Source: Candidatus Nanopelagicales bacterium (GTDB taxonomy: Bacteria > Actinomycetota > Actinomycetes > S36-B12 > JAWKJK01). From it: 64,000 nt of DNA. The stretch covers positions 153,562 through 217,561 of the forward strand of contig JAWKJK010000003.1 in the NCBI GenBank assembly GCA_041393815.1, given 5' to 3'. Shown in pieces: positions 16,617 to 55,232 of the stretch. The translations under genes and the position numbers were made by a program. The notes below the pieces were generated by a model. It worked only from the letters and a program-made list of their open reading frames with translations. It was not told where the DNA came from and searched no databases. Position 1 is the stretch's first letter. Every line of letters starts with the position of its first letter.

Positions 16617-16638
16617 GAGTCTCCCGGGCGGCGGGGCG

Positions 16639-30043: not shown

Positions 30044-30085
30044 TTCCGGTCCGGCACGTGACCGGTGCCCACGGTACGCAGAAGC

Positions 30086-30119: not shown

Positions 30120-30213
30120 TCCCGGGCATGAACTCGGGCCCTTCGAGGCTGCCCTCATGAGGGGGGCCGCGGATACCATGTCGAGGTCTTCGCCGGTAGG
30201 GGGGAGCACGGCC

Positions 30214-31611: not shown

Positions 31612-31649
31612 GGAGGCAGACCACAGACGGCCGCTTGTGGTGCCACTGG

Positions 31650-31935
31650 CCTGCTACTGGACGGCGGGCAGGTCGTGCTGTGTGGCACGAGGGCTCGCGG
31701 GCGGGGCAGGAACGGGCCCGGTCACCTTCCCGCCGCAGCGTCGGGGGCAGGCACCTGTGCCTGGCGGACTTCTTCCGGCCGAAGGAGTCCGGGCAGACCA
31801 ACGTGGTCGCGTTCCACGTGGTCACCATGGGCAACCCGGTCTCGGAGGCGACGGCGAAGCTGTTCGAGTCCGACTCGTACCGGGACTACCTGGAGCTGCA
31901 CGGGCTGTCGGTGCAGCTGACCGAGGCGCTGGCGG
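31650..31935 (+). pseudogene. degenerate duplicate of an internal metH fragment (matches 28994-29281)
   Basis: Direct nucleotide alignment. The 5' third has a 2-nt insertion, a 1-nt deletion and clustered substitutions. The last ~190 nt differ at only 4 positions by eye. Translation: WHEGSRAGQERAR..HLCLADFFRPKESGQTNVVAFHVVTMGNPVSEATAKLFESDSYRDYLELHGLSVQLTEALA. Confidence 0.85.
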
Positions 31936-31984
31936 TTCGCGAACGCGCGGTAGACCCGGGCCGGCTGCCGGCTGCTCGCGCATA

Positions 31985-32013
31985 CAGTTGATCTTCCGCG
32001 GAAGAACAACTTG
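31985..32013. repeat. degenerate copy of the family-4 palindrome
   Basis: CAGTTGATCTTCCGCGGAAGAACAACTTG. Preceded at 31936-31953 by TTCGCGAACGCGCGGTAG, which is identical to 30026-30043. Confidence 0.8.
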
Positions 32014-32017: not shown

Positions 32018-32065
32018 TTGTGGTGCCGGTTGCGCGCGCTGTAGCGCGCGCAACCGGCACCACAA
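32018..32065. repeat. 22-bp-stem hairpin
   Basis: TTGTGGTGCCGGTTGCGCGCGC-TGTA-GCGCGCGCAACCGGCACCACAA. Confidence 0.85.
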
Positions 32066-37497: not shown

Positions 37498-37550
37498 GGT
37501 CCGGGAGCGTACGGGGGCCCTCCGACACGCCGCCGCATCGCCGTTCCGCG

Positions 37551-37607
37551 AGTGCTCGCTCGTGGGGGTTTCAGGACCGTCCCGAAACCCCCACGAGAGA
37601 GCACTCG
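37551..37607. repeat. family-2 palindromic repeat, copy A
   Basis: GAGTGCTCGCTCGTGGGGGTTTCAGGACCGTCCCGAAACCCCCACGAGAGAGCACTC, followed by a G-run tract (GGGGAGGG...GGGTGGGCGGGG). Confidence 0.9.
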
Positions 37608-37688
37608 ACGGGGAGGGTCGTGCGGGTGGGCGGGGTCGAGCGGCGCGGCGCCCGCGCTCCGGCCGGACGCGGGGGGACACTGGCGCCG

Positions 37689-38477
37689 ATGACGACCGCG
37701 CCGAGCGGGGCCGTCCCCCCGCCGCGGGAGGGCCGGCCGGACGGCGAGCACCGCCGCGGGTCGTGGGCGCGCGCCACCGCGGAGCGCACCGTACGGCTGC
37801 TCGCGGAGCGGCACCGGATCGAGGTGGACCCCGGCGGGCTGGCCGAGCACCTGCGTGAGCGGGTGGAGCAGGTCGCGGTCGTCATGGCGGTCACCCCGCG
37901 GGAGGCGCGGCGGTACTTCGAGCCCGAGCGGCTGGCCGACCTGCTCGCGGAGCAGCTGGCCGACGAGCCCGAGAAGCACGGCCCCGCCGCCATCACCCCG
38001 CTCCCGGTCGAGCCGACGCTGGCCGCGGCCCGTACGAACGACGACCGGGTCGGCTCCGCACCGGTGGATCTGGCCGACCTCGGGTACGCCGTCGCCTGGT
38101 GCGGCCTGGTCGCCGCGCGGAACGGCGACACCGAGCTGGCCGCCGCGGCCGCCCTCCAGTCTGCGCGGGTGTCCTGCCTGATCGCGGACCTGCTGCGGTC
38201 CGGTCCCGACCCGACGGCCGAGCGACCCGGAGGGGCGCAGATCGCGATCGAGCTGGTGGCGCCGTTCCGGGACGACCTGGTCGCCCTGATGGACCGCGTC
38301 GCGGCCCGGATCCGGAGCGGACGCTTCCGCGACCTTCCGGGCTCGCACGACCCGGCTGCGGCGCTGCGCGACCTGGAGGCGGCGCGCGAGGCGCTGGGGG
38401 CACCCGGCGGGGGCGCCGGCGCGCCGGGCACCGCCGCCGGCGAACCGCCGCGGGCCGACGCGCCGCAGCCGACCTAG
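37689..38477 (+). CDS. hypothetical protein
   Basis: Strong G/C third-position bias in this frame. Starts MTTAPSGAVPPPREG. No recognisable family. Confidence 0.5.
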   Translation: MTTAPSGAVPPPREGRPDGEHRRGSWARATAERTVRLLAERHRIEVDPGGLAEHLRERVEQVAVVMAVTPREARRYFEPERLADLLAEQLADEPEKHGPAAITPLPVEPTLAAARTNDDRVGSAPVDLADLGYAVAWCGLVAARNGDTELAAAAALQSARVSCLIADLLRSGPDPTAERPGGAQIAIELVAPFRDDLVALMDRVAARIRSGRFRDLPGSHDPAAALRDLEAAREALGAPGGGAGAPGTAAGEPPRADAPQPT

Positions 38478-38486: not shown

Positions 38487-39608
38487 ATGGACCCCGAGGA
38501 GCCGCGGCAGCGCGGCCTGTTCCGCCTCGGCGGGATCCCGGTGTCCGTCCCGTGGAGCGGGGTCATCGGGGTCCTGCTGATCGCCTGGCTGTGGTCCCCG
38601 CAGTTCGCCCTCGCCGGCGGCAGCACGACCGAGCAGGTCGTGCTCTCCGGCGCCTTCGCGGTGCTGCTGTACCTGTCGATCCTGGTGCACGAGCTGGCGC
38701 ACGCGTGGTCCGCACGTGCCTTCGGCTTCCAGGTCACCGGGATCGTGCTGTGGGTGCTGGGCGGGTTCACGCTGTACGAGCGGCAGCGCCAGCCCTCGCC
38801 GGGTCGCGAGGCGGCGGTCGCGGCCTCCGGCCCGATTGCCACCGCGCTCATCGCCGTGGTCACCGGCGTGGTCGCGGCGACCGTGGCCGGCGGCTGGGAC
38901 CCTCGGGTTGTCGTCCTGCTGGAGGCGCTGGCCTGGGGCAACGCGGTCATGGCGGTCTACAACGCACTGCCAGGCCTCCCGCTGGACGGGGGAGCGGTGC
39001 TCAAGGCTGTCGTCTGGGGCGCGACCCGCTCGGAGTACCGCGGCACGGTCGTCGCCGCCTGGTCCGGCCGGGTCCTGGCCGTCGTCCTGGTCGCGGCCCC
39101 ACTGGCGCTGTTCTGGGGGTCGGGCGCCTCGGCGGGGATCGGGCTGCTGCTCGCCGGCGCGATCTTCGCGGCGATCCTGTGGACCGGGGCCACCCAGGCG
39201 CTCCGGCGGGCGCGGGTCGAGGAGCTGCTGCCGTCGCTCACCGCCCAGGCACTGGCGCGCCGGGCCGTCCCGGTCGACAAGGACCTCCCGCTGTCGGAGG
39301 CGCTGCGCCGGCTCGGCGGGGCCGGCGCCGGCGGCCTGGTCGTCGTGGACCACGACGGGCAGCCCCTCGGGATCGCGCACGAGGCCGCCGTCAGCGCGAC
39401 GCCGCTGCAGCGGCGGCCGTGGGTGCCGGTCGGCAGCGTCTCCCGACGGATCGACCCCCGCGCCGTCCTGGCCCAGGACCTGGTCGGCGACGCCCTGCTG
39501 CGGGCGATGCAGGACCACCCCGCGCCGGAGTACCTGGTGGTCGACGGGGACGGCCGGGTCGTCGGGGTGCTGGCGGCACAGGACGTCGAGGCCGCCCTCA
39601 GCGCGTAG
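38487..39608 (+). CDS. site-2 protease (M50) family metallopeptidase with a C-terminal CBS pair
   Basis: HELAHAWSARAFGF (HExxH) within TM helices. The C-terminal VVVDHDGQPLGI / YLVVDGDGRVVGVL segments are CBS-like. Confidence 0.85.
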   Translation: MDPEEPRQRGLFRLGGIPVSVPWSGVIGVLLIAWLWSPQFALAGGSTTEQVVLSGAFAVLLYLSILVHELAHAWSARAFGFQVTGIVLWVLGGFTLYERQRQPSPGREAAVAASGPIATALIAVVTGVVAATVAGGWDPRVVVLLEALAWGNAVMAVYNALPGLPLDGGAVLKAVVWGATRSEYRGTVVAAWSGRVLAVVLVAAPLALFWGSGASAGIGLLLAGAIFAAILWTGATQALRRARVEELLPSLTAQALARRAVPVDKDLPLSEALRRLGGAGAGGLVVVDHDGQPLGIAHEAAVSATPLQRRPWVPVGSVSRRIDPRAVLAQDLVGDALLRAMQDHPAPEYLVVDGDGRVVGVLAAQDVEAALSA

Positions 39609-39642
39609 CCCGCCCGCCGCCGAGCGCCTCTCCGCGTTCATC

Positions 39643-39696
39643 GCTCGGTCGTGGGGGTTTCGGGACCGTCCTGAAACCCCCACGAGCGAGCACTCG
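39643..39696. repeat. family-2 palindromic repeat, copy B
   Basis: GCTCGGTCGTGGGGGTTTCGGGACCGTCCTGAAACCCCCACGAGCGAGCACTCG, followed by GGGGTGGGGAGG. Confidence 0.9.
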
Positions 39697-39748
39697 CTGG
39701 GGTGGGGAGGCTGGCGAGGGGGTCGGCGGGCGGCGGTAGGTTTCCCGC

Positions 39749-40774: not shown

Positions 40775-40883
40775 ACCACCCGCCGCGGCCAACGCGACCC
40801 GCCGGAGGATCCGACGCATGGAGGGGTGGCGTACGCGCCCGACGTGGGTAGGGTCGAAGGAAGCGCCAAGGGAGGTGACCGAC

Positions 40884-42542
40884 GTGCCGTACGAGGACGA
40901 CGCCCCGCGCCTGCGCGCGATCGAGGACCGGCTGGCCGAGGTCCAGGACGAGCTGGCCGCCGCCAAGTCGCAGAACGTCCGGCTCGCGGCGACGCTGCGC
41001 GAGGCGCGCGAGCAGATCATCACCCTCAAGGCCGAGGTCGACCGGCTGGCCGAGCCGCCGAGCGGGTACGGCGTCTACCTCGAGACCCACGACGACGACA
41101 CCGTCGACGTCTACACGGCCGGGCGCAAGATGCGCGTCACGGTGAGCCCCGGGGTCGACGCCAGCGAGCTGCGGCCGGGCCAGGAAGTCATGCTCAACGA
41201 GGCGCTCAACGTCGTGGGTGCGATGGAGTACGAGCGGCACGGGCAGATCGTGATGTTCAAGGAGCTGCTCGAGGACGGCTCGCGCGCCCTGGTGCTCGGC
41301 CACACCGACGAGGAGCGGGTGGTGCCGCTGGCGCAGCCGCTGCGCGGCACCGTGCTGCGTGCCGGCGACTCCCTGCTGATGGAGCCGCGGTCGGGCTACG
41401 TGCTGGAGAAGATCCCGAAGGCCGAGGTCGAGGAGCTCGTGCTGGAGGAGGTCCCTGACATCGACTACGCCGACATCGGCGGCCTGGCCGGCCAGATCGA
41501 GCAGATCCGCGACGCCGTCGAGCTGCCGTTCCTGCACCCCGACCTGTTCGCCGAGCACAAGCTCGCCCCGCCCAAGGGGATCCTGCTGTACGGCCCGCCC
41601 GGCTGCGGCAAGACGCTCATCGCCAAGGCGGTCGCCAACTCGCTGGCCAAGAAGGTCGCCGAGCGCGAGGGTCGCGAGGCCGGACGGTCGTACTTCCTCA
41701 ACATCAAGGGTCCCGAGCTGCTGAACAAGTACGTGGGCGAGACCGAGCGGCACATCCGGCTGGTATTCCAGCGGGCCCGGGAGAAGGCGTCCGAGGGCAT
41801 GCCGGTCATCGTCTTCTTCGACGAGATGGACTCGCTGTTCCGCACCCGCGGCTCGGGCGTCTCCAGCGACGTGGAGAACACGATCGTGCCGCAGCTGCTC
41901 AGCGAGATCGACGGCGTGGAGAGCCTGGAGAACGTCATCGTCATCGGGGCGTCCAACCGCGAGGACATGATCGACCCGGCGATCCTGCGTCCGGGCCGGC
42001 TCGACGTGAAGATCAAGATCGAGCGGCCGGATGCGGAGGCCGCGCGCGACATCTTCTCGAAGTACCTCACCGCCGACCTGCCGCTGCACGCGGACGACCT
42101 GGCTGAGCACGATGGGTCGCCGGACACCGCGTGCGCGGCGATGATCCAGCGCGCCGTGGAGCGGATGTACAGCGAGATCGAGGAGAACCGGTTCCTGGAG
42201 GTCACCTACGCCGACGGGGACAAGGAGGTCCTGTACTTCAAGGACTTCAACTCCGGCGCGATGATCGAGAACATCGTCGCGCGGGCGAAGAAGATGGCCA
42301 TCAAGGACCTCTTGGACCACGGCCAGCGCGGCATCCGGGTGCAGCACCTGCTGACGGCGTGCGTGGACGAGTTCCGCGAGAACGAGGACCTGCCCAACAC
42401 GACCAACCCGGACGACTGGGCGCGGATCTCGGGCAAGAAGGGCGAGCGGATCGTGTTCATCCGCACCCTTGTCCAGGGCAAGCAGGGCACCGAGGCCGGC
42501 CGCTCCATCGACACGGTGGCCAACACCGGCCAGTACCTGTAG
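40884..42542 (+). CDS. arc: proteasome-associated AAA ATPase ARC/Mpa
   Basis: N-terminal coiled coil, OB domains, GPPGCGKT Walker A, and a C-terminal ...TGQYL tail. GTG 40884 is preceded by GGGAGG. Confidence 0.95.
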
Positions 42543-42557
42543 GCCCGCGTCCCGCGA

Positions 42558-42590
42558 GGGCACACGATCCGCTTTGCGGATCGTGTTGCA
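42558..42590. repeat. family-1 palindromic repeat, copy 4 (forward)
   Basis: GGGCACACGATCCGC-TTT-GCGGATCGTGTTGCA (one arm mismatch), then GCGGCGTGTCGGGG and TCACACGATCCGGGT. Confidence 0.9.
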
Positions 42591-42692
42591 TCGGGGTGCG
42601 GCGTGTCGGGGCAGGAGGCGGTCACACGATCCGGGTGATGGTGGTGCTGCGCCCCACGGGGGCACAGGGAGTTCCTGAGGCGGGTGAGGCGG

Positions 42693-44171
42693 CTACGGCC
42701 TGGCGGGGAGCTGGACGGTCGCGTGCGTCCCGGTCTCCCCGTCCGAGTCCAGGGTGACGGTCCCGCCGTTGGCCTCGACCAGCGCGCGCACCACGGACAG
42801 GCCAAGCCCGGAGCCGGGCACCTCGTCCGCGCGCGGTCCGCGCCAGAAGCGATCGAACACGTGCGGCAGGTCCTCGGGCAGGATGCCGGGTCCGGTGTCG
42901 GCCACGACGACGCGGGCCACGTCCGCAGCGGTGCCTCCGAGCTCCACGCGCACTGAGACCTCGTCGCCCGGGCGGCAGAACCGCGCGGCGTTGGACAGCA
43001 GGTTGCCCACCACCTGGTGCAGCTGGTCGCCGTCGGCGACGACGTGGATGCCGTCCTGCACCTGGGTATGAACCGTCAGACCCGCCGCGGCCAGGGCCGG
43101 TTCGTGCGCGGCCACGGCCGAGCGCACCAGGGCGGCGAGGTCCACGTCGGTGCGCGGACCGCGTGGGGTGGGGTCCTCCGCGGCGGCGAGCCGGGCCAGG
43201 TCGTCGACCACCCGCCCGAGTCTGAGCGCCTGGTCGTGCAGGCCGGCGAGGACCTGCGGGTCCGGCGGGACGTAGCCGTCGCGCAGCTCCTCCAGGCCGG
43301 CTTGGAGCACCGCCAGCGGGGTACGCACCTCGTGCGCGACGTCCGCGGCCATCTGCCGCCGCTGCGACTCTGCCAGTGCGACGGCGTCGGCGGCGTCGTT
43401 GAAGGCGGCAGCAACCTCCGCCACCTCGTCGGGACCGGCCTCCTGCGCCCGCGCCGTGCGGTCGCCGGCACCGAACGCGCGGGCGGTCCCCGCGAGCTCG
43501 CCGAGCGGCCGGGTGAGCCGCCGCGTCACCCACCAGCTCGCGAGAATGGCGACGCCGAGGGCGACCACGGCCGCCACCGCGATCCAGGTCCACGCCACCG
43601 ACCGGCCAGACCCGGCAGCCGGCGTGCCGAACCCCAGTCGTACGGTGCCCACCTGCTGGCCCTCGACGACCACGGGCGCGACGACCGCGCCGGACCCCGC
43701 GGACACGACCGCCCCTCCGCCCGGGCCCGGTCCGGAGCCCTGGCCGCTCGCCGGGTTGCCGCCGTCGGGGTTGCCGCCACCCGCCTGGCCGTGACCGTCC
43801 GTCCCCGTCCCGACGATGACGCCGTCCGCGTCCCGTACCGACAGCCCCGCGCCCGCCGCGGACGCGACCGCGGTCGCGTCGCTGAGGTCGGCACCCTCCC
43901 AGCCACCTGCGCGCGTGTACGCCTGCGCGGCCAGGTCGGCGACGGTCACCGCCACCGCCTCCCGCTCCTCCGTGCGCAGGGCGGACAGCCCGAGGCCGGA
44001 GCCGATCAGGGCGGAGACTGTGAGCACCGCGACGGCGACCAGCGAGACCACGGTGAAGGCGAGCAGCAGCCGACCGCCGAGCGACCCCCGCGCCCCGGAG
44101 CGCCGCGACCGCCGTCCCCCGGGGCGCGCCTCAGCGGTCACGGGGGAGCCCCAGCCGGTAGCCGACGCCAA
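42693..44171 (-). CDS. sensor histidine kinase (2 TM, HAMP, HisKA, HATPase_c)
   Basis: MAADVAHEVRTPL H-box, LLSNAARF N-box, DTGPGI and GSGLGLS motifs. GTG 44141 is an alternative start. Confidence 0.85.
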   Translation of the reverse strand: MASATGWGSPVTAEARPGGRRSRRSGARGSLGGRLLLAFTVVSLVAVAVLTVSALIGSGLGLSALRTEEREAVAVTVADLAAQAYTRAGGWEGADLSDATAVASAAGAGLSVRDADGVIVGTGTDGHGQAGGGNPDGGNPASGQGSGPGPGGGAVVSAGSGAVVAPVVVEGQQVGTVRLGFGTPAAGSGRSVAWTWIAVAAVVALGVAILASWWVTRRLTRPLGELAGTARAFGAGDRTARAQEAGPDEVAEVAAAFNDAADAVALAESQRRQMAADVAHEVRTPLAVLQAGLEELRDGYVPPDPQVLAGLHDQALRLGRVVDDLARLAAAEDPTPRGPRTDVDLAALVRSAVAAHEPALAAAGLTVHTQVQDGIHVVADGDQLHQVVGNLLSNAARFCRPGDEVSVRVELGGTAADVARVVVADTGPGILPEDLPHVFDRFWRGPRADEVPGSGLGLSVVRALVEANGGTVTLDSDGETGTHATVQLPARP

Positions 44172-44814
44172 CGACGGTCTCCACGACGGAGCCGCCGTCG
44201 GGGCCGAGCTTGCGGCGCAGGTTCTTCACGTGCGAGTCGATCGTGCGCTCGTAGCCGGCGAACTCGTAGCCGCGGACCCGGTTGACGAGTTCGTAGCGGG
44301 AGTAGACCCGGCCGGGGCTCGCGGCCAACGCCGTCAGCAGCCCCCACTCGGTCGGTGTGAGGTCCAGCTCGGTCCCGTCGAGGACGGCGACGTGGCGGTC
44401 GTCGTCGATGAGGAGCCGGCCCCCGCCGTACGACGGTGCCGCCGGACCGTCCGCCGTCTCCTCGCCGCGGCCGAGCACGGCCTGGACCCGCAGCACCACC
44501 TCGCGCGGGGAGAACGGCTTCGTCACGTAGTCGTCCGCGCCGAGCTCGAGGCCGGCGATGCGGTCCTCGACTCCTGACCGTGCAGTCAGCACGATGACCC
44601 GGGTTCCCAGACGGCGGGCCTCGCGCAGCACCTCCAGCCCGTCCACGTCCGGCAGCCCGAGGTCCAGCAGCATCAGGTCCACGCCGGTGCCCAGCGAGGC
44701 GATCGCCTCGGCGCCGGACCCGGTGGTGAGCACCGAGTGGCCCGCGCGCTCGAGGTAGCGACGCAGCAGGTCGCGGATGTCCCGCTCGTCCTCGACGACC
44801 ACGACCGCTGCCAC
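44131..44814 (-). CDS. OmpR-family response regulator
   Basis: [14 protein letters not shown]...[13 protein letters not shown]...DDYVTKPF...TVVGVGYRL. Confidence 0.9.
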
Positions 44815-44862
44815 GGGCCCATCCTGACGCGTCCCAGCCCGCGTGGCGGGCTGGGGAGGCAC

Positions 44863-44884
44863 CTCCACACGATCTCCACACGGA
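44863..44884. promoter_or_regulatory. candidate response-regulator operator: 11-bp direct repeat in the divergent RR / DUF2202 promoter region
   Basis: CTCCACACGAT followed by CTCCACACGGA, one helical-turn spacing. Confidence 0.3.
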
Positions 44885-44994
44885 CCGCACGACCCCTGCA
44901 GACCGGCCTCCGATGCTGCAGGTGTTCGCCCCCCAGACGGCGACGAAGACCCGGGCCGGAGCCCCGCGCGCTGGCCCCCGACGAAGGAGAGACC

Positions 44995-45705
44995 ATGCGA
45001 CGCACCCTCATCGTCGCCGGTGCAGCCGCCGGCGTCCTCACCCTCGGCGTGGCCGCCCCCGCGTTCGCCGCGGGCAACGGCTTCGGCCCCGGCACCGGCA
45101 CCGCGTCGGCGACCTGCGACGGCACCGGCGTTCCGCTGGCGGACGGCACCGGCACCGGCGGAGGCCCGTACGGACCGGCCGGGTCCGGCCGAGGCGCCGG
45201 TCGTGGCCAGGGCGGGCAGGGGTTCGGACAGGGCCCCGGGAACGGCACCGGCGCGAACGCCGCCGCCATGGGCACCCTGACCGCGACGCAGAAGGCCGAC
45301 CTGCAGTTCATGGTCGAGGAGGAGAAGATGGCGGGCGACCTGTACGCCGCCTTCGCCGCGAAGTACGACAGCGCCGAGTTCGCCCGGATCGCCGCCAGCG
45401 AGGACCGGCACATGGCGTCGGTGCAGAACCTGCTCGACAAGTACGGCATCGCCGACCCGACGGACGGCGCGAAGGCAGGCGTGTTCGACAACGCCGACCT
45501 GCAGGCGCTGTACAACAAGCTGCTGGCCCAGGGCATGACGAGCCTGGACGACGCGTACGACGCCGGCGTGCTGGTCGAGAAGACCGACATCGCGGACCTC
45601 GAGAAGGACCTCGTGGGCCTGACCGCCCCCGACGTGAAGCGGGTCTACACCAACCTGCTGCGCGGCTCCACCAGCCACCTGGCCTCCTTCGAGGCCCTGG
45701 CCTGA
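44995..45705 (+). CDS. secreted DUF2202 (ferritin-like) domain protein with a Gly-rich N-terminal region
   Basis: Signal [25 protein letters not shown], then [16 protein letters not shown]...[20 protein letters not shown]. Confidence 0.8.
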
Positions 45706-45792
45706 CACCCACGTACGACGGCACCACCCGCCCCACGCGTCACCGGGTGCGGGTGGTGTTGCGTCTTCCGGACGCGACACGCCGCCCCACCT

Positions 45793-45825
45793 GGGCACAC
45801 GATCCGCAAAGCGGATCGTGTGCCC
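45793..45825. repeat. family-1 palindromic repeat, copy 5 (reverse)
   Basis: GGGCACACGATCCGC-AAA-GCGGATCGTGTGCCC, preceded by GACACGCCGCCCCACCT. Confidence 0.9.
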
Positions 45826-45827
45826 GA

Positions 45828-45847
45828 GGGGTGGGGGAGGGGTGGGG
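45828..45847 (+). other. G-quadruplex-type motif 20 nt upstream of the dop start
   Basis: GGGG-T-GGGGG-A-GGGG-T-GGGG: four G-runs with 1-nt loops. Confidence 0.4.
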
Positions 45848-45866
45848 CGCGCCTACGCTGGTGGGC

Positions 45867-47387
45867 ATGAGCGTGCACCGGGTCATGGGGATCGAGACCG
45901 AGTACGGGATCTCGGTGCCCGGCCACCCGAACGTCAACGCCATGCTGACCTCGTCCCAGGTCGTCAACGCGTACGCGTCGGTGGCGATGGGGGAGCGGCG
46001 CGGCAAGACCCGCTGGGACTACGACGAGGAGACCCCGCTGCGCGACGCGCGCGGGTTCGACCTGTCCCGTGCCGAGGCCGACCCGACCCAGCTCACCGAC
46101 GAGGACCTCGGCCTGGCCAACCTCATCCTCACCAACGGGGCCCGGCTGTACGTCGACCACGCGCACCCGGAGTACTCCACGCCGGAGGTCACCAACCCGC
46201 GTGACGCGGTGGTGTGGGACAAGGCCGGCGAGCGGATCATGGAGCGCGCGGCCGCCCTCGCGTCCGCGGTCCCCGGGGCGCAGCCGATCCAGCTGTACAA
46301 GAACAACACCGACAACAAGGGCGCGTCGTACGGCTGCCACGAGAACTACCTGATGGCGCGCACCACCCCGTTCGCCGACGTGGTCCGGCACCTCACCCCG
46401 TTCTTCGTGTCCCGCCAGGTGGTCACCGGGTCCGGCCGGGTCGGCCTGGGCCAGGAGGGGCGCGAGCACGGCTTCCAGATCTCCCAGCGGGCGGACTTCT
46501 TCGAGGTCGAGGTGGGCCTGGAGACGACGCTGAAGCGCCCCATCATCAACACCCGGGACGAACCGCACGCCGACCCGGAGCGCTACCGGCGGCTGCACGT
46601 CATCGTGGGCGACGCGAACCTGTCGGAGACCTCCACCTACCTCAAGCTGGGCACGACCTCGCTGGTGCTGTCGATGCTCGAGGACGGGTTCTTGGACTTC
46701 GACCTGTCGCCGGCGAAGCCGGTGCAGGAGATGCACGCGGTGTCGCACGACCCCACGCTCGGCCACCAGATCGAGCTGCGCGACGGCCGTCGCCTCACCG
46801 CGGTGCAGATGCAGCTGGAGTACCTCGAGACCGCGCGCAAGTACGTGGCGGACCGGTACGGCGACGACGTCGACGAGCAGACCGCCGACGTGCTCGCCCG
46901 CTGGGAGTCGGTGCTGCTGCGGCTCGAGGACGACCCGATGCTGCTGGCCGCGGAGCTGGACTGGGTGGCCAAGCTCAGCCTGCTCGACGGATACCGCCGC
47001 CGGGACGGGCTGGACTGGGACGCGGCCCGGCTGCACCTGGTCGACCTGCAGTACTCCGACGTGCGCCGCGGCCGGGGGCTGGCCGCCCGGCTGGAGGAAC
47101 GGGGCTCGCTGCGCCGGCTGACGACGGACGAGGAGGTCGCGCGGGCGGTCGTCGAGGCGCCGCACGACACCCGCGCGTACTTCCGCGGGGAGTGCCTGCG
47201 CCGCTACGGCGACTCGGTCGCGGCCGCCTCCTGGGACTCGGTGATCTTCGACATCCCCGAGCGCGACGCGCTGCAGCGGGTTCCGACGCTGGAGCCGCTG
47301 CGGGGCACCAAGGCACATGTCGGGGCGCTGCTCGACGCCAGTCCCGACGTGGCCGCGCTGATGGCCAACCTCACCGACCGCGGCTGA
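45867..47387 (+). CDS. dop: Pup deamidase/depupylase
   Basis: [13 protein letters not shown]...[21 protein letters not shown]...[19 protein letters not shown]. Confidence 0.95.
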
Positions 47388-47434: not shown

Positions 47435-47740
47435 GTGCTGGGACGGCTGCGACGCTCGCTGGGCGGCTCGGCGCCCGGGATGAGCGCCGCGCTGGGCGCC
47501 CTGGACGAGGTGCTCAACCCCGCGGCGCACCGGGCCCGCGAACTGCTCGAGCACGACCACGAGCGGGTCGTGGCCACACCGTCCCCGGGCGACCGCCTGC
47601 TCAACGAGGGGGTGCTGGAACTGCCGGCGACCCCTCAGCCCAGCCGCTCCAACCGGAGCGCGAGCGCGGGGCAGGCGGCGACCGCCCGCTCGGCGAACCC
47701 GTGCAGGTGCTCGGGGACCGGACCGCCCACGAACGGGTAG
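47435..47740 (+). CDS. small hypothetical protein (DUF6191-like by eye); its 3' end overlaps the convergent ferredoxin gene
   Basis: GAGGAGGG SD 4 nt before the GTG: LGRLRRSLGGSAPGMSAALGALDEVLNPAAHRARELLEHDHERVVATPSPGD. The true stop is uncertain. Confidence 0.3.
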   Translation: MLGRLRRSLGGSAPGMSAALGALDEVLNPAAHRARELLEHDHERVVATPSPGDRLLNEGVLELPATPQPSRSNRSASAGQAATARSANPCRCSGTGPPTNG

Positions 47741-47865
47741 CCCCAGTCGTCGAGGGAGATGACCTCGGGCAGCAACTCGGCGCACAGCCCATGGGCGTCG
47801 CAGCGCAGCCAGTCGACCTGCAGCGACTCCATCCGACGGCCGGAGGTCACGGTCGATCCGTCCAT
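47635..47865 (-). CDS. small ferredoxin
   Basis: LQVDWLRCDAHGLCAELLPEVISLDDWGYPF...AVAACPALAL. GGAGGTG SD. Starts 5 nt after the stop of the NuoF-like gene. Confidence 0.7.
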   Translation of the reverse strand: MDGSTVTSGRRMESLQVDWLRCDAHGLCAELLPEVISLDDWGYPFVGGPVPEHLHGFAERAVAACPALALRLERLG

Positions 47866-47870
47866 CCCGG

Positions 47871-49313
47871 TCACCTCCACTCCGTGTCGCTGCCGAGGGC
47901 GGGGCCGGGCACGGGGATGACCGGTCGTCCCACGGAGCCCGGGCAGGGCTCCCCGGCCGCGTGCGCGTAGGCGTCGTCCGCGGCCATCGTCAGGGCCGAG
48001 CGAACCGTGCGGGCCACGCCACCGGGGTGGTGGCAGGCGCCCCGGCCCTCGACCATCCCGCACCAGCGGTGCAGCCGGTCCAGCGTCGCCAGACCGCCTT
48101 GCCCGCTCGCGAGCAGCTGCAGGCCGTGCGCGAGTGCGGGCAGGCCGTTCAGGCAGGGTCCGCACTGCTGCGCACTCTCGCCCGCCATCCACCGGGTGAT
48201 CCGGGCCGTCTCGGCCAGGGTGCAGGTCCCCACCGGGACCGGGGCCAGCAGCCCGACTCCCGGGGACACGCCAGACTCGCCGCGCCCGGGGGCCTGCAGC
48301 GGCGTGGTCCACGCGTCGGCGCCGTCCAGCCAGGTCCCCGCGAATCCGCCCATGAGGACCGCACCGACCTGGGTGCGGTCGATGCCGGCGGCCTCCAGCG
48401 CGTCGCCCGCGGGCAGCCCCGACGGCACCTCGAGGACGGACGAGCCGCCGGACGGGTGCCGGACGGTCACCATCCGGGTCCCGGGGTCGCCGGGCACGCC
48501 GACCTGACGGAACCACTCCGCCCCGTGCCGGGCGATCAGCCCGACGTGGGCGTACGTCTCCGCGTTCGACAGCAGCGTGGGGCGTCCGTCGACCCCGCGC
48601 TGATCGGGCCGCGGGGTGGGCCCGGTCGGCAGCGCCGGACCGCCGGACAGGAAGCGGATGACCGCGCTGGCCTCGCCCGACACGTAGCGGTCCGGGACCT
48701 CCTCGAGGCGGACCCGCAGGTCGTGGCCGTCGTCACGCTCGAGCTCGTACAGGGCGGCGTCGACGGCGTCCCGAGTGGCCAGATCGCCGCGGTGGACGAC
48801 CACGACGACGTCGCGGGCGCCCACGGCCCGGGCGCAGGCGACGGCCCCGTCGAGCACCAGGTGGGGGGTGAGCGTGAGCAGGGAGGCGTCCTTCGCGGAC
48901 AGCGGCTCGCCCTCGGAGGCGTTGACGACGACCACCGGGCGACGACGCCGCGAGGCGACCGCGGCCAGCTTGATGCCGAACGGGAACGCCGCACCGCCGC
49001 GACCCCGCAGCCCCGAGTCGGTCACCTGCTGCAGCAGCGGGTCGGGCTCGGACCTGCCGCGCCGGCGGGGGACCGGGAGGGCGCCGTGCACCGCACGGTG
49101 CTCCTCCAGGCCGAGGCGCCGGCGCGAGTGGTCGACCCCGGCCAGCAGCCGAGCCGGTCCGAGCGCCAGGACCTGGGTGCTCCCCGGGCGCTCGTTCGGG
49201 ACCGGCGTCACCGGCGTCACGGGCTCTGCGGTGCCGGTCGGCCCGGGCAGATCCACCAGGGTCATCGTCCGGGCCTCGGCCGCGCGTGCGCCGGAACCGG
49301 GACTGGCGGTCAC
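47871..49313 (-). CDS. NuoF-like flavin/Fe-S oxidoreductase (NADH dehydrogenase subunit F family)
   Basis: GLRGRGGAAFPFGIKL, VVVNASEGEPLSAKD, YVSGEASAVIRFL, ESAQQCGPCLNG and RGACHHPGG. GTG 49313 overlaps the upstream stop (GTGA); ATG 49265 is the alternative. Confidence 0.8.
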   Translation of the reverse strand: MTASPGSGARAAEARTMTLVDLPGPTGTAEPVTPVTPVPNERPGSTQVLALGPARLLAGVDHSRRRLGLEEHRAVHGALPVPRRRGRSEPDPLLQQVTDSGLRGRGGAAFPFGIKLAAVASRRRRPVVVVNASEGEPLSAKDASLLTLTPHLVLDGAVACARAVGARDVVVVVHRGDLATRDAVDAALYELERDDGHDLRVRLEEVPDRYVSGEASAVIRFLSGGPALPTGPTPRPDQRGVDGRPTLLSNAETYAHVGLIARHGAEWFRQVGVPGDPGTRMVTVRHPSGGSSVLEVPSGLPAGDALEAAGIDRTQVGAVLMGGFAGTWLDGADAWTTPLQAPGRGESGVSPGVGLLAPVPVGTCTLAETARITRWMAGESAQQCGPCLNGLPALAHGLQLLASGQGGLATLDRLHRWCGMVEGRGACHHPGGVARTVRSALTMAADDAYAHAAGEPCPGSVGRPVIPVPGPALGSDTEWR

Positions 49314-50062
49314 GGGGTCACCGCCACCGTCGCGGTGGACTCCGGGGGCGGCGTTCCCGCCTTCTCGGCCCACCCGGGTGCCAGCGGCCCCCCGACGGCC
49401 CACAGGGTGACCAGCACGGGCGCGACGGCCAGGCCGATCAGGGCGGTGATCCGCGCCGGCTGGGGCAACGTCACCAGGCCGGCGACGCGAGCCGCCACGG
49501 CCATGATCACCAGGACGACGCAGACGGCGGTGACGATCTGCACGGCCGGGTTGCGGGCGTCGGTCCCGGTGCCGAGCCCGTGCAGCACCGAGGCGCCCCA
49601 GGCGACGTAGGTGAACGCGTGCACGACCCGCCAGGTGCGTTCGCTGAGGCGGCGACGCCACGCGGTCGCGATGAGGGCCGCGATGAGCAGGTCGACCGCG
49701 AGGGTGCCGAGGCCGAGCCAGATCGGCCGGTACGGCGAGGCGAACGGGACCACCGCGTCCCAGACGTCGATGTCGACGTAGGAGTCCAGCACCGAGGTCA
49801 CGATGTGGATGCCGAGCAGGGCCACGGTCATCAGGGCCAGCTTGCGGTGCAGCTCGTTGGTGACGAACGCGGGCATCTTGAACGGCAGCCGGCGCGCCGT
49901 GGACAGCACGCCGAGGATGACGACCAGGGTGAACTGGACCAGCAGCACCAGCCCGGTCGCCCGGTTGAGCCACCACAGGGTCTGCGAGGGGACGGTGACG
50001 TCCACGGCGGCGACAGGGGCCGCCGCCGACAGGTGCTCCAGCGTCAGGCTGAGCGCGGTCAT
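49310..50062 (-). CDS. ferric-reductase-like transmembrane (di-heme b type) protein
   Basis: Six predicted TM helices with paired His residues: NELHRKLALMTVALLGIHIV and VVHAFTYVAWGASVLHGLG. Confidence 0.8.
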   Translation of the reverse strand: MTALSLTLEHLSAAAPVAAVDVTVPSQTLWWLNRATGLVLLVQFTLVVILGVLSTARRLPFKMPAFVTNELHRKLALMTVALLGIHIVTSVLDSYVDIDVWDAVVPFASPYRPIWLGLGTLAVDLLIAALIATAWRRRLSERTWRVVHAFTYVAWGASVLHGLGTGTDARNPAVQIVTAVCVVLVIMAVAARVAGLVTLPQPARITALIGLAVAPVLVTLWAVGGPLAPGWAEKAGTPPPESTATVAVTP

Positions 50063-51048
50063 GCCGCGACCTCCTCGGGCCAGGGGTGAACGGGGACGAC
50101 GGTGCCCTCGGTCGTGACCAGTCGGGCGGGCAGGCCGGCGTTGGCCAGCCAGGTGGGTGCCGACTCGCCCAGCATCAGGGCGGCGGCGGAGGCTGCGTTG
50201 GCGTCCACGCAGGTGGCGGCGGCCACGGAGGCCGTACGGAAGCGCCCTCGTGCGGGTGAGGCGGTGCGCGGGTCGATGAGGTGGTGCACGATGCGCCGGC
50301 CGACCCGCCAGCGTCGGGCCAGGGTGGTCGAGGTCGCCAGCCCGCCGGTGGCGAGCGCGACCAGGACCGGCGGGGCCTCGCCCGGCTCGGGCTCGGGCCG
50401 CTCGGTGAGGCGGACCAGGAACCCCGGGCTGCCTTCGGGGACGCCGGCCACGGCCAGGTCACCGCCCATGCCCACGAGCACCGGACCGTCGACGGCGCGG
50501 GCGGCAGCCTGCGCGGCGGCATCGGCGGCCCAGGCCTTCGCCGACGCCCCGAGGTCGAGCACGACCCCGGCCGGCACCCGCACCGTCCCGGCCTCGTCGT
50601 CGACGACGACCTGCGTGTGGTCGGGGCGTCGGACGACGGCGACCGGCGTGGTGAGGCGCCGGATCCCGGTGCTGCGCAGCTCCTCGATGTCGCGGTCGTA
50701 GCCGTGTGCGACCAGCAGCTCGCCGATGGTGGGGTCGATCAGGCCGTCGGTGATGCGCGCCACCCGCAGCCCCTCGCGCACCAGCGTGCGGAACAGCGGG
50801 GAGGCCGGGACCGGCCGGCCCTCGGCGGTGTTGAGCTCGCTGATCTCGCTGTCGGTCCGGAACCGGCTGGCCGCGAGGTCCACGGCGTCGATGACGGCCT
50901 GCACGGCGGCCCGTGCCGGGGCCAACTCGTCGGCGCGCGTCGTCACCACCTCGACGGTGGTCGACCACACGGTCCAAGTGGCGTGGGCGGCGGGCAGGCA
51001 GTCGGTGTCCCGGACGGCGCCGCCCGCTGCGGGGGCGGCCGTGGTCAT
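50059..51048 (-). CDS. apbE: FAD:protein FMN transferase (ApbE family), no signal peptide visible
   Basis: SRFRTDSEISELN, DPTIGELL, LDLGASAKAWAAD, MGGDLAV and HHLIDPRT. ATGA overlaps at both ends. Confidence 0.85.
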   Translation of the reverse strand: MTTAAPAAGGAVRDTDCLPAAHATWTVWSTTVEVVTTRADELAPARAAVQAVIDAVDLAASRFRTDSEISELNTAEGRPVPASPLFRTLVREGLRVARITDGLIDPTIGELLVAHGYDRDIEELRSTGIRRLTTPVAVVRRPDHTQVVVDDEAGTVRVPAGVVLDLGASAKAWAADAAAQAAARAVDGPVLVGMGGDLAVAGVPEGSPGFLVRLTERPEPEPGEAPPVLVALATGGLATSTTLARRWRVGRRIVHHLIDPRTASPARGRFRTASVAAATCVDANAASAAALMLGESAPTWLANAGLPARLVTTEGTVVPVHPWPEEVAA

Positions 51049-51701
51049 GACCCGGAACCGCCGGCGGGGGCGGGCGCGGGGGCGGGCTTCGCCGGGGCCG
51101 GGGCCGGCGGGGGCGGCGGCGGCGGGGCCGGGGCGGCCGGCTTCGGGGCCGGTGCCGGGGCGGCGGGCTTCGGGGCGGGTGCGGGGGCGGCCGGCTTGGG
51201 TGCCGGCGCGGCGGCGGGCTTGGGCGCGGACTGCCCGGAGGACCCGCCCGAGCCCGAGGACCCGGAGGAGCCGGAGGAGCCGGACGACCCGCCGGAGCTC
51301 GAGGACCCGGACGAGCCGGAGGACCCGGAGGAGCCGGACGTCGTCACGGCCTGGGGAGCGGCGGCCGGCGCGGCCGGCGCGGCGTCGGCCTTGGCCTTCG
51401 CCGCCGCGGCCTTCTTCGCCTTCGCGGCCGCCTTCGCCTTGGCCTTCGCCTTGGCGGCCTTCGCCGCTGCGGCGTCCGTCGCCGCGGCCGGGTCGGAGGA
51501 CCCTGCCGCGCCGTCGTCGACGGCGGCCGCCTCGGCCACCGCCACCTCGGCCAGGGGGGCCTGCTCGGCGGCAAGCCCCGTGGTCGGTGCGGCCAGGGCC
51601 GCGGTCACGATGCCGGTCGCGGCGACGGTTCCCACCGTCGCCGCCGCGGCCATCACGTTGACCGTGCGGGTTCCTGCCGTCCTGCGGCGGGTCGCGTCCA
51701 T
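51045..51701 (-). CDS. low-complexity secreted protein (Ala/Lys, Gly/Ser and Pro/Ala/Lys repeat blocks)
   Basis: MDATRRRTAGTRTVNVMAAAATVGTVAATGIVTAALA signal with an RRR. High G/C third position in this frame. GAGGTAGG SD. Stop overlaps the apbE ATG. Confidence 0.5.
   Translation of the reverse strand: MDATRRRTAGTRTVNVMAAAATVGTVAATGIVTAALAAPTTGLAAEQAPLAEVAVAEAAAVDDGAAGSSDPAAATDAAAAKAAKAKAKAKAAAKAKKAAAAKAKADAAPAAPAAAPQAVTTSGSSGSSGSSGSSSSGGSSGSSGSSGSSGSGGSSGQSAPKPAAAPAPKPAAPAPAPKPAAPAPAPKPAAPAPPPPPPPAPAPAKPAPAPAPAGGSGS
51130..51229. repeat. 27-bp tandem repeat, about 3.7 units
   Basis: GGGGCGGCCGGCTTCGGGGCCGGTGCC-like units, encoding APAPKPAAP on the minus strand. Confidence 0.85.
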
Positions 51702-51957
51702 CGCCTACCTCTCGGGTCGGGCCCGTTCCTGCGGGGGCCTCACGGTCGGGTCGGCGCTGCGCCGGACCCGGGTCGATCCCCTCGCGGACCACTGTGGGGG
51801 AGGCACCGATAAGTGGGTACCCCGCCACTCCTAACGGGTCCCTAAGGATCTTGGGTCGCCTCAGGGAGCCGCGTCCCGGCCCGGCGGATAGGGTCAGGGG
51901 TTGCGGCGGGTCCGCTGCCGGGTGGTCGGTGCCGGGGCCCGCACGGGAGGAGGGTCC

Positions 51958-52167
51958 ATGAGCACGCGCGACAGCGGCGAGCAGAAGCGGGCGACCCGCT
52001 CGGCGGACGAGGTCGACGAGGTCGAGGTCGCCCCCGCGGAGGACGTGGCGGCCCGCAAGGAGCAGCTCGACGCCGACGTGGACGCGATGCTGGACGAGAT
52101 CGACGAGGTGCTCGAGGAGAACGCCGAGGACTTCGTGAAGTCGTTCGTGCAGAAGGGCGGCCAGTGA
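51958..52167 (+). CDS. pup: prokaryotic ubiquitin-like protein
   Basis: [15 protein letters not shown]...[28 protein letters not shown] ends in GGQ. GGGAGGAGGG SD. Confidence 0.95.
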
Positions 52168-53048
52168 GCAACCAGGGCGAGCGGACCGGTCAGGCACGGC
52201 TGCCGGACGCCTACCTCGGGGCCGGGTCGTCGTCGTTCGTGGAGTTCCTCGGTGCGCAGGCACCCGATCTCCTGCCCGGCCGTCGGCTGGCGCAGCAGGG
52301 CTGGCCGGCCGCTGCGCGGTCCGGTGAGGACCGCGGCCTGGACGCGCCGCACGGCACCACGATCGTGGCGGTGACCTACCCCGACGGCGCGGTGATGGCC
52401 GGCGACCGCCGGGCCACGATGGGCAACATCATCGCCCAGCGTGACATCGAGAAGGTCTTCGCCGCGGACGAGCACTGCGTGGTCGGCATCGCCGGGACCG
52501 CGGGCATCGCCGTGGAGCTGGTGCGGCTGTTCCAGGTGGAGCTGGAGCACTACGAGAAGATCGAGGGCGTCCCGCTGTCCATGGACGGCAAGGCCAACCG
52601 CCTGTCCACCCTGCTGCGCGGCAACCTGGGGCTGGCCATGCAGGGCCTGGCCGTCGTCCCGCTGCTGGCCGGCTTCGACCTGGAGTCCGAGGGCGGCCGG
52701 ATCTTCTCGTACGACGTCACCGGCGGCCGCTACGAGGAGCACGACTTCTACTCGGTCGGGTCGGGGTCGATGTTCGCGCGCGGCTCGCTGAAGAAGCTCT
52801 ACCGCGAGGACCTGTCCGCCGAGGACTCCATCGCGGTCGTCATCGAGGCGCTGTACGACGCCGCCGACGACGACTCGGCCACCGGAGGCCCGGACCTGGC
52901 CCGCGGGATCCTGCCCGTGGTGGCCCGGGTCGACGCCGCCGGGGTCCACCTGCTGTCCGACGAGGAGCTCGGGCCGGTGGTGCGCGCCGTGGTCGAGGCC
53001 CGGATGACGCGCCCGGACGGCCCGAACGCCCCGCTGCCGCGGGTCTGA
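52164..53048 (+). CDS. prcB: proteasome subunit beta
   Basis: Propeptide, then [27 protein letters not shown] overlap with the pup stop. Confidence 0.95.
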
Positions 53049-53064: not shown

Positions 53065-53835
53065 ATGAGCGTCCCGTTCTACGTCTCGCCCGAGCAGATC
53101 ATCAAGGACAAGGCGGACTACGCGCGCAAGGGCATCGCCCGCGGCCGCAGCGTCGTGGTGCTGCAGTACGACGGCGGCATCCTGTTCGTTGCGGAGAACC
53201 CGTCCCGGGCGCTGCACAAGATCTCCGAGATCTACGACCGGATCGCGTTCGCCGCGGTCGGCAAGTACAACGAGTTCGAGAACCTCCGGGTCGCCGGCGT
53301 CCGGCTCGCCGACCTGCGCGGCTTCTCCTACGACCGGCGCGACGTGACCGGGCGCAGCCTGGCCAACGCCTACGCCCAGACCCTCGGCACGATCTTCACC
53401 GAGACGCCGAAGCCGTACGAGGTGGAGATCGTCGTGGCCGAGGTGGGGGAGGGCCCGGCGGACGACCAGCTATACCGGCTCACGTTCGACGGGTCCGTCG
53501 CCGACGAGCACGGCTTCGTCGCGATGGGCGGCTCGGCGGAGAAGATCTCCGGCGCGCTGCTGGAGTCGTGGCACGACGGGATGCCGCTGGAGGAGGCCCT
53601 GCGGCTCGCGGTCGCCACCCTCGGGACCGAGGGCTCCGGCGACGGCAACCCGCGCGTCCTGACGGCCGACCAGCTCGAGGTCGCCGTGCTCGACCGGTCC
53701 CGGCCGCGGCGCAAGTTCCGCCGGGTGGTCGGCGACCGCCTCACCGACCTGCTGGGCGAACCGCCGGAGCCGCCCCCCGCTCCCGGTGTGCCCGAGTCGC
53801 CCGACACCGACCCGGAGTCCGCCGACACGCCGTGA
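53065..53835 (+). CDS. prcA: proteasome subunit alpha
   Basis: [29 protein letters not shown]...[16 protein letters not shown]. Confidence 0.95.
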
Positions 53836-53861: not shown

Positions 53862-55232
53862 ATGGACCGCCGGATCTTCGGGCTCGAGACCGAGTACGGC
53901 GTCACGTGCACGTTCCGCGGCCAGCGCCGGCTGAGCCCGGACGAGGTCGCGCGCTACCTGTTCCGTCGGGTCGTGTCCTGGGGTCGCAGCAGCAACGTCT
54001 TCCTGCGCAACGGCGCGCGGCTCTACCTCGACGTCGGCAGCCACCCGGAGTACGCCACCCCGGAGTGCGACGACGTCGAGCAGCTCGTCGTCCACGACAA
54101 GGCCGGGGAGCGCATCCTCGAGGGCCTGCTCGTCGACGCGGAGCGGCGGCTGCGGGAGGAGGGCATCTCCGGCGACGTGTACCTGTTCAAGAACAACACC
54201 GACTCGGCTGGCAACTCCTACGGCTGCCACGAGAACTACCTGGTCGGCCGGCAGGGGGAGTTCAGCCGCCTGGCCGACGCGCTGATCCCGTTCCTGGTGT
54301 CCCGGCAGATCATCGCCGGCGCCGGCAAGGTGCTGCAGACGCCCCGCGGGGCGGTCTACTGCGTCAGCCAGCGGGCCGAGCACATCTGGGAGGGCGTCTC
54401 CAGCGCCACGACCCGGTCCCGGCCGATCATCAACACCCGGGACGAGCCGCACGCCGACGCGGAGCGCTACCGCCGGCTGCACGTGATCGTCGGCGACTCG
54501 TCGATGAGCGAGACCACCACGCTGCTGAAGGTCGGCTCGACCGACCTGGTGCTGCGGATGCTCGAGGCCGGGACGGTCCTGCGCGACATGACGCTGGAGA
54601 ACCCGATCCGCGCCATCCGGGAGATGAGCCACGACCCCACCGGTCGGAAGATCGTACGGCTCGCCAACGGGCGAGAGCTGTCGTCGCTGCAGATCCAGAC
54701 CGAGTACTTCGAGCGGGCGCTGGAGTTCGCCCACCGGCGTGGCTTGACCGAGGACCCGGCCGGCGTCCCGGCCCGGGTGCTGGACCTGTGGGGCCGCACC
54801 CTCACGGCCGTGGACACCGGCGACCTGTCGCTGGTCGAGCGCGAGGTGGACTGGGTGATCAAGCTGCGGCTGCTGGAGCGCTACATGGCCCGCCACGGGC
54901 TGCCGCTGTCCAGCCCGCGGATCGCCCAGCTGGACCTGGCGTACCACGACATCACCCGCAGCCGCGGGCTGTACTACCTGCTCGAACGACGCGGCGCCGT
55001 CGACCGGATCACCCGCGACCTCGACGTCTTCGAGGCCAAGAACGTGCCCCCGCAGACGACCCGGGCCCGGCTGCGGGGGGAGTTCATCCGCCGGGCGCAG
55101 GAGCGCCGCCGCGACTTCACGGTCGACTGGGTGCACCTCAAGCTCAACGACCAGGCCCAACGCACGGTGCTGTGCAAGGACCCGTTCCGGGCCGTGGACG
55201 AGCGGGTGGACAAGCTCATCGCCAGCATGTGA
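53862..55232 (+). CDS. pafA: Pup--protein ligase
   Basis: [14 protein letters not shown]...[21 protein letters not shown]...[19 protein letters not shown]. Confidence 0.95.

Follow-up and report, generated by a model that had tools for sequence, protein, structure and literature searches.

The genes arc and dop of the Pup-proteasome locus in an uncultured actinobacterium, represented by a metagenome-assembled genome (MAG) labelled 'Candidatus Nanopelagicales', are separated by three genes coding for a sensor histidine kinase, an OmpR-family response regulator and a secreted ferritin-like DUF2202 protein, and the spacers at both ends of this block are filled by oppositely oriented copies of a palindromic repeat that we call family-1. 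The stretch of DNA analysed, hereafter the window, comprises 64,000 nt with a GC content of 73%, and positions are counted within it unless another locus is named. An original prediction made from the window had taken the repeats for the vehicle that brought the three genes. The history that we consider probable, albeit with clear reservations, is a different one: a conserved cassette was inserted long ago into a permissive spacer and was later decorated by terminator-type hairpins resembling repetitive extragenic palindromic (REP) elements, the repeats not having been the carrier.

The inserted block and its occurrence elsewhere

Upstream of the block lies arc, encoding the Mpa/ARC proteasomal AAA ATPase (plus strand, from 40725 or 40875 to 42542, with the likely start near 40875 and the stop codon at 42540-42542; Pfam domains AAA, Prot_ATP_ID_OB_N and Prot_ATP_ID_OB_C); the arc genes of relatives are 77-84% identical to it. 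A spacer of 150 nt (42543-42692) separates it from the convergent kinase gene (minus strand, 42693-44051/44171; HAMP, HisKA and HATPase_c), whose true start is probably near 44051-44140. The regulator gene (minus strand, 44131-44823; Response_reg and Trans_reg_C) is followed by a divergent intergenic region of 171 nt (44824-44994), which contains a 10-bp hairpin at 44833-44855 and presumably holds the promoters and a putative binding site of the regulator. On its other side stands the gene for the DUF2202 protein (plus strand, 44995-45705; 236 amino acids, Pfam DUF2202, a signal-peptide-like N-terminus), and a further 161 nt (45706-45866) lead to dop, the depupylase/deamidase gene (plus strand, 45867-47387; Pup_ligase, E = 1e-191), whose product has 100% identity to a protein of a 'Candidatus Nanopelagicales' MAG.

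A kinase with HisKA and HATPase_c and a regulator with a receiver and the winged-helix Trans_reg_C domain make up an OmpR-family two-component system, and no named NCBIfam equivalog reached its cut-off for the two proteins. The gene content first read from the translations, including the lack of a transposase, agrees with the Pfam domains. No transposase or RAYT (REP-associated tyrosine transposase, of the Y1 type) was found among the scanned proteins of the window, the block included; apart from a tyrosine integrase at 2342-3535, which adjoins a tRNA gene, the window has no recombinase.

The same gene order, with kinase and regulator on the minus strand and a divergent DUF2202 gene on the plus strand, recurs in five other loci (L091, L175, L176, L177 and L178) and in about 20 JGI contigs, none of these cassette loci being near arc or dop. 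Across them the regulators are 65-76% and the kinases about 50% identical. In L177 and L178 the cassette (L177 3730-6727) sits between carD and radA, a conserved housekeeping junction, and in L176 (10001-14682) it stands beside three rhodanese genes and a Lactamase_B-rhodanese gene. No inverted repeats flank the cassette at the loci checked for them (L091, L176 and L177). The best non-self homologues of the window kinase, 53-55% identical, are spread across Actinomycetota, and the homologue search returned nothing above 55% identity. Judged by gene order and homology, the trio is a conserved, self-contained regulatory cassette of Actinomycetota that occupies varied chromosomal sites. Its neighbours (in L176, L175, L092 and L177) are often genes for rhodanese, Lactamase_B-rhodanese (persulfide-dioxygenase-like), thioredoxin and PIG-L proteins, which hints at a role in sulfur, redox or metal stress.

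The arc-dop spacer in relatives and the age of the insertion

We compared 80 reference-genome loci around dop (Dop identity 71-78%) and the loci L081, L082 and L084; the locus L085, which starts 102 nt before dop, was left out as uninformative. None of these 80 reference loci, nor L081, L082 or L084, has the three-gene block between arc and dop. The two genes are 100-280 nt apart in most of the reference loci, 64 nt in L081 and L082 (Dop 82%), 122 nt in L084 (81%) and 97 nt in L001 (78%). The compared loci bear out the suspicion that the block is absent elsewhere between arc and dop, and hence that it is a lineage-specific insertion into the Pup-proteasome locus. This half of the original prediction stands, given spacers of 64-122 nt in L081, L084 and L001; the half that made the repeats the mediator of the insertion finds no support.

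The closest relative in our comparison is L083 (Dop 84%), which is the sister of the window in a neighbour-joining tree of Dop, followed by L081 and L001. Its contig, 5.3 kb long, begins inside a DUF2202 gene, so that arc and any two-component genes fall outside it. This DUF2202 gene lies upstream of dop on the same strand, with a 220-amino-acid minus-strand gene without a Pfam match between the two; family-1 is absent, and a different hairpin follows the DUF2202 stop. Because a DUF2202 gene near dop was found in none of the other 84 arc/dop loci, one ancestral insertion is much likelier than two. Between the window and L083, fourfold-degenerate positions in dop, pup, prcB and prcA show an identity of 0.56-0.57, the random expectation being about 0.5 for sites that are G or C only; since these sites are saturated, the split between the two is ancient on the scale of neutral DNA.

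With a DUF2202 gene lacking family-1 in L083 and with synonymous sites saturated, the insertion is probably, as far as sequence comparison can tell, far older than the near-perfect family-1 hairpins. The copies at its junctions either came long after the block or are kept by selection, and neither course needs them as a vehicle. Relatives with the same genes and no repeats had been named beforehand as a finding that would tell against a repeat-borne insertion, and L083 supplies this in part: its DUF2202 gene stands beside dop in the absence of family-1, the rest of the arrangement lying beyond the start of the contig.

A dop promoter and a permissive spacer

A -10-like hexamer of the form TAnnnT (TACGCT, plus strand, 45853-45858) is found 7 nt 5' of the dop ATG, and a TAnnnT motif precedes the dop start by 6-7 nt in the window and in nine relatives (L083, at 1358-1363, L081, L084, L001, L003, L004, L009, L012 and L074). 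At that distance the motif has the geometry of actinobacterial leaderless promoters. It appears, from this conservation, that dop has its own putative leaderless-type promoter and forms a transcription unit separate from arc. As separate units they should leave a spacer that tolerates insertions, and the conserved promoter thus suggests why the arc-dop spacer takes them. In Mycobacterium tuberculosis two unrelated genes stand between mpa/arc and dop; the likeness to the window is that the spacer admits unrelated genes while the Pup-proteasome genes stay intact, and the difference lies in the genes admitted, here a two-component system and a DUF2202 gene in one cassette.

Arc, dop, pup (51958-52167), prcB (52164-53048), prcA (53065-53835) and pafA (53862-55232) are found together in this locus as a Pup-proteasome cluster, the last four having been assigned by homology to the annotated loci L081 and L084. 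A second lineage-specific block, at 47635-51834 between dop and pup, encodes a Fer4_15 ferredoxin, a Nuo51-like FMN/FeS protein, a ferric-reductase-like membrane protein and ApbE, and it also includes a low-complexity open reading frame (ORF) with PEEPEDP-type 9-nt repeats (51111-51342). It has no family-1 copies at its flanks, so insertions in this locus do not need the repeats. The block is common to the window and L001 and absent from L081, L083 and L084, a distribution that is at odds with the Dop tree and suggests that the block was gained or lost more than once.

Anatomy of the family-1 repeat

Five copies of family-1, all of them intergenic, occur in the window (5 per 64 kb), and its core motif has 17 matches there against 3.2 expected. 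A profile built from the five copies served to delimit them and to scan the related loci. The layout consists of a GC-rich head, a perfect palindrome, GGGCACACGATCCGC-TTW-GCGGATCGTGTGCCC, and a tail with GGCGGCGTGTCG and a further arm copy, ACACGATCCG, the same arm sequence giving a degenerate second hairpin. Between copies the hairpins are 91-100% identical.

The left junction copy (plus strand, 42543-42668, with the profile match starting at 42534) has its hairpin at 42558-42590, 15 nt after the arc stop, with a perfect 11-bp core (42562-42586), a TTT loop and a decayed 3' arm; its tail is directed at the kinase stop and holds GCGGCGTGTCG and, at 42623-42633, a third copy of the arm, CACACGATCCG. 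The right junction copy (minus strand, 45708-45863) has a perfect 15-bp stem in its hairpin at 45793-45825, and the loop, AAA on the plus strand, reads TTT in the orientation of the element. Its tail is directed at the DUF2202 stop, and the hairpin ends 41 nt 5' of the dop ATG, just upstream of the expected -35 position. Read as plus-strand RNA, the right element has a predicted folding energy of -106.7 kcal/mol (z = -7.9). That both spacers are filled by family-1 in opposite orientation, as the original prediction had it, is confirmed by the profile (42534-42668 on the plus and 45708-45863 on the minus strand) and by an alignment of the inverted arms (42558-42633 and 45750-45825, 76 nt, 78% complementary).

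Two more copies form a doublet at 5138-5487, with a left half at 5138-5293 (plus strand, hairpin 5180-5212) and a right half at 5331-5487 (minus strand, hairpin 5416-5448). Together they are an imperfect palindrome of 350 nt, 70% self-complementary over 361 aligned positions, between the convergent genes for an M20 peptidase (3810-5150, plus strand) and a DUF5703 protein (5490-5888, minus strand); each hairpin lies 29-41 nt beyond the stop codon of its own gene. The fifth copy stands alone (16515-16648, minus strand, hairpin 16584-16616) in a convergent spacer, its hairpin 22 nt beyond the stop of a minus-strand 6PGD-like gene, and in its stem the palindrome is kept through a compensatory G/C swap. 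The tail of this solo copy is abutted by an imperfect palindrome, GCGAGACACCAGAA...TTCTGGTGTCTCGC (16486-16559), which comes right after the stop of a class-I Cys-tRNA-synthetase-like gene, and the convergent spacer thus contains two different hairpins.

A loop and tail types said to tie the junction copies to each other and to the doublet proved less telling than they had seemed. The TTT loop is indeed confined to the two junction copies among the five of the window, but the loop of the right copy is not fixed in the population: in the unitig L086 (3215-3260, matching window 45780-45825) it reads TAA instead of AAA, with the locus-specific flank CCCCACCTGG kept. This is strain-level polymorphism or gene conversion, and a loop base that varies among closely related strains says little about a common origin. 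The match of the junction tails to the left and right tails of the doublet is there and marginal, with 74% identity between the left copies (those of the hairpins at 5180 and 42558) and 71% between the right ones (5448 and 45825), against 60-69% for the cross pairs. In BLAST comparisons the left doublet copy is closer to the right junction copy (84.8% over 79 nt) than to the left one (80.5% over 87 nt). A string common to the two left copies, CGATCCGGGTnnTGGTG, can be named, and the claim of subtypes rests on few bases.

Family-1 appears to be lineage- or genome-specific. The profile found no copy in 85 related loci, its matches being in the window only; the exact hairpin has 0 matches in JGI metagenomes, and the doublet has no match in the plasmid collection, which yielded generic two-component homology only. 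At the Rfam gathering threshold the search returned a tRNA alone and nothing for family-1, and a permissive Rfam search gave generic hairpin matches to microRNA models, far below threshold.

Placement and possible role of the repeats

In four of the five copies the hairpin lies 15-41 nt beyond a stop codon and the tail extends in the direction away from the gene, and the occupied spacers are convergent in three cases of four, against 9 of 58 over all spacers (hypergeometric p about 0.01). Perfect hairpins with a stem of at least 10 bp number 12 in the window, the five of family-1 and seven others, and most of these seven are also in a post-stop position. A scan of the 73% GC sequence for promoter and terminator consensus motifs gave 0 sites.

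We favour a scheme in which the cassette entered the arc-dop spacer long ago, probably in an ancestor common to the window and L083. The spacer would have been permissive, arc and dop being separate units and dop keeping its own -10 box. Family-1 elements would settle, or persist, just beyond the 3' ends of genes, mostly in convergent spacers, where they most likely act as a bidirectional transcription stop or as a stabiliser of 3' ends. The left junction copy would then separate the convergent transcripts of arc and of the kinase-regulator pair, and the right one would stop or attenuate read-through from the DUF2202 gene into dop and so insulate the dop promoter. The order of these events and the way in which the repeats spread are our reconstruction.

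Several observations weigh against this history. That L083 shares the insertion event is deduced from position, its contig being cut inside the DUF2202 gene; the tree of DUF2202 proteins, in which identities are about 50-56% throughout, has the shape of a star, does not recover L083 as the sister of the window and gives no confirmation of orthology. The right junction copy is an exception to the placement described above, since its tail, not its hairpin, adjoins the stop of the upstream gene. No hairpin is followed by a T-tract (U-tract in the RNA), which sets all of them apart from canonical intrinsic terminators. With 4 of 58 spacers occupied, some pair of occupied spacers within three genes of each other is expected with a chance of 50%, and the chance that both of these specific junctions are occupied is 0.004-0.01 under random placement, a post hoc probability from a test chosen after the pattern had been seen. 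Lastly, outward-facing hairpins, a shared rare loop and a weak sorting of left and right tails are what a bipartite element would be expected to show.

Are the repeats parts of a mobile element?

This last pattern would fit the proposal that family-1 is a non-autonomous element akin to a miniature inverted-repeat transposable element (MITE), with left and right ends, of which the doublet at 5138-5487 would be the empty form and the stretch 42558-45825 a form carrying a 3.1-kb cargo, mobilized by a transposase encoded elsewhere. The block is indeed bounded by terminal inverted repeats, in the shape of the 76-nt arms with hairpins at their outer ends, and the cargo is fitted tightly between them, 22-40 nt from the gene ends. 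The tail types weakly match those of the doublet, within this MAG the junction copies have the TTT loop in common, L081, L084, L001 and 80 other loci lack the block, and cargo flanked by paired MITEs has been described elsewhere (PMC6382973).

Against this, the flanks bear no target-site duplication: their longest direct match, of 6 nt, overlaps the hairpin and equals the mean for shuffled sequences (6.06), nor was a duplication found at the 5-kb doublet. The flanking tails are 60-67% alike, far from near-identity, and no transposase is encoded within the window. There is no second cargo-bearing example and no other copy of the block in the window or in the protein database, where the DUF2202 matches at 100% come from the same locus. 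The cassette occurs without flanking repeats in L091, L176 and L177; in L083, separated from the window by a saturated synonymous distance, a DUF2202 gene neighbours dop and the repeat is missing; and the loop is polymorphic in the population. Nor do the remaining copies fit well, one of them standing alone at 16.6 kb and each half of the doublet following directly behind a stop codon, so that two independent 3'-end elements explain the convergent spacer at 5138-5487 as well as an 'empty pair' does. The cargo-carrying MITE-like unit of the original prediction is therefore not upheld on account of the missing target-site duplication, the diverged tails, the lack of a transposase in the window, the repeat-free cassettes elsewhere and L083, and we hold it to be improbable. 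If true, it would mean that small hairpin repeats carry entire regulatory cassettes from place to place in Actinobacteria, and so that genes have a new way of entering a conserved housekeeping locus.

The doublet could also have been there first. According to this idea, a doublet like the REP pairs known as REPINs (REP doublets forming hairpins) already occupied the arc-dop spacer and was later split centrally by the cassette. Such a doublet is known at 5138-5487, the tails point inward at both junctions, and the centres of partner REPs in REPINs are mutually inverted (TT/AA), as are the loops here (PMC3337134). Yet family-1 is missing from the spacers, 64-122 nt long, of L081, L084 and L001, and an insertion older than the divergence of the window and L083 would require an even older doublet, which is nevertheless found in no relative; its hairpins, moreover, are too conserved for such an age unless they are under selection. 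We give this course of events little credence. We likewise think it improbable that a REPIN-like, hairpin-ended non-autonomous mobile element with an asymmetric left-right doublet as its unit captured the complete regulatory cassette or was split by it; if true, this would be the first REP-type element to bracket, and possibly to move, cargo genes.

The breakpoints of the block coincide with repeats, and this might suggest that homologous recombination between dispersed family-1 copies, for instance by successive inversions between inverted copies, brought the cassette in from elsewhere in the same genome. Assembly graphs give this some colour: Logan unitigs of the same population (present in the runs DRR438452, DRR438453, DRR438461, DRR438469 and SRR36351797), which include the DUF2202 gene at 100% identity, end inside both junction hairpins (k=31), and since the graphs break exactly there, the junction hairpins are confirmed as repeated sequence. 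The high identity, however, extends over only 33 nt, which is short for RecA-type exchange, and L083 has DUF2202 and dop adjacent without repeats; such a transfer is in our opinion unlikely. The same unitig ends, together with the one unitig whose right-end loop differs, could be held to betray an assembly artefact, in which a chimeric path through the repeated hairpins joined the block between arc and dop. This we regard as very improbable indeed, as the exact repeat is at most 33 nt, which is below the final k that metagenome assemblers usually reach, the flanks are specific to the locus, and an independent contig of a different organism (L083) also has a DUF2202 gene upstream of dop.

Other identities of the hairpins were considered and rejected: a target-site duplication in its own right, since the loops are inverted and not direct; a module of the Xer/dif type, for which the 3-nt spacer is too short; integron attC sites, given the perfect stems, the opposite orientations and the lack of an integron integrase; and a transcription-factor operator, given the positions behind stop codons.

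Comparison with known repeats and terminators

The closest known kind for family-1, as the preferred history assumes, is REP/REPIN. REPs, their mosaic assemblies (bacterial interspersed mosaic elements, BIMEs) and REPINs are extragenic palindromes with flanking arms that occur as singlets and inverted doublets and are sometimes co-opted as terminators (PMC3337134, PMC3116915). Family-1 likewise is a repeated short extragenic palindrome with arms, present as one inverted doublet (5138-5487) able to form a long hairpin, the other copies being a singlet and a split pair. The loop centres of its partners are mutually inverted, its positions are behind the 3' ends of genes, and it is apparently genome-specific. 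It differs in that no RAYT was seen in the 64 kb and no polymorphism of excision or insertion was observed, in its perfect, GC-rich 15-bp stem with a loop of 3 nt, behind which the same arm sequence gives a degenerate second hairpin, and in its host, an uncultured actinobacterium and not a proteobacterium. REP families number tens to hundreds of copies in a genome and are associated with a single-copy RAYT gene, as a rule between REPs. Our literature search found no report of REPINs or RAYTs for this uncultured actinobacterial group, and family-1 appears to be a previously undescribed REP-like repeat family, found in a MAG labelled 'Candidatus Nanopelagicales'.

MITE composites, such as the MITE pairs around class 1 integrons in Acinetobacter and MITE-297 around a mer region (PMC6382973), resemble the arrangement at the arc-dop spacer in that two small non-coding repeats bracket a gene block without a transposase of its own. 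Their repeats, however, are identical or nearly so, with terminal inverted repeats that match known insertion sequences (IS) and with target-site duplications, whereas here the tails are 60-67% alike, a target-site duplication is absent and no known IS matches the repeats.

For the high-GC Actinobacteria, intrinsic terminators that consist of a hairpin only ('I-shaped') have been proposed, and their efficiency without a U-tract is disputed. Like them, family-1 has a perfect, strong and GC-rich hairpin that follows stop codons at a distance of 15-41 nt, often in convergent spacers and without a T-tract; it departs from them in being a repeated unit of about 120 nt with two hairpins, not specific to one locus, and in having one copy directly upstream of a promoter. 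As found, the arrangement is of modest significance and leaves current understanding unchallenged; it does present the trio as a widely conserved cassette at different chromosomal sites.

Other repeats and elements in the window

A second family of palindromic repeats is present at 37517-37650 and 39609-39735 (about 80% identity, core CTCGTGGGGGTTTCnGGAC...GAAACCCCCACGAG). Its two copies bracket an ORF of 262 amino acids (37689-38477), which has no Pfam match and no homologue in relatives, and a syntenic gene for an M50 peptidase (38487-39608). Since this family does so too, the inverted bracketing of small gene groups by palindromes is not unique to family-1.

The 3' end of metH (26050-29559) is directly repeated 2.35 kb downstream, where 31650-31950 matches 28994-29298 with 90.6% identity over 308 nt; the downstream copy persists as an ORF with a Met_synt_B12 fragment (31680-31991). 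Between the copies (29560-31650) lie an ORF of 122 amino acids and another of 542 with beta-propeller (SBBP) repeats, and the repeat region has perfect palindromes at 30086-30119 and 32018-32065. Apparently metH received an insertion at its 3' end by which the end of the gene was restored, and no integrase was seen in the region.

At the left end of the window, the gene for the tyrosine (phage-type) integrase (2342-3535) adjoins a tRNA gene on the opposite strand (3597-3680), the usual signature of an integrated element; no Pfam family matches the ORFs at 3-884, 881-1360 and 1755-2345. The longest perfect hairpin of the window is a palindrome of 58 nt at 20909-20966, with a 27-bp stem and a 4-nt loop, which occurs once, 59 nt past the stop of pgi.

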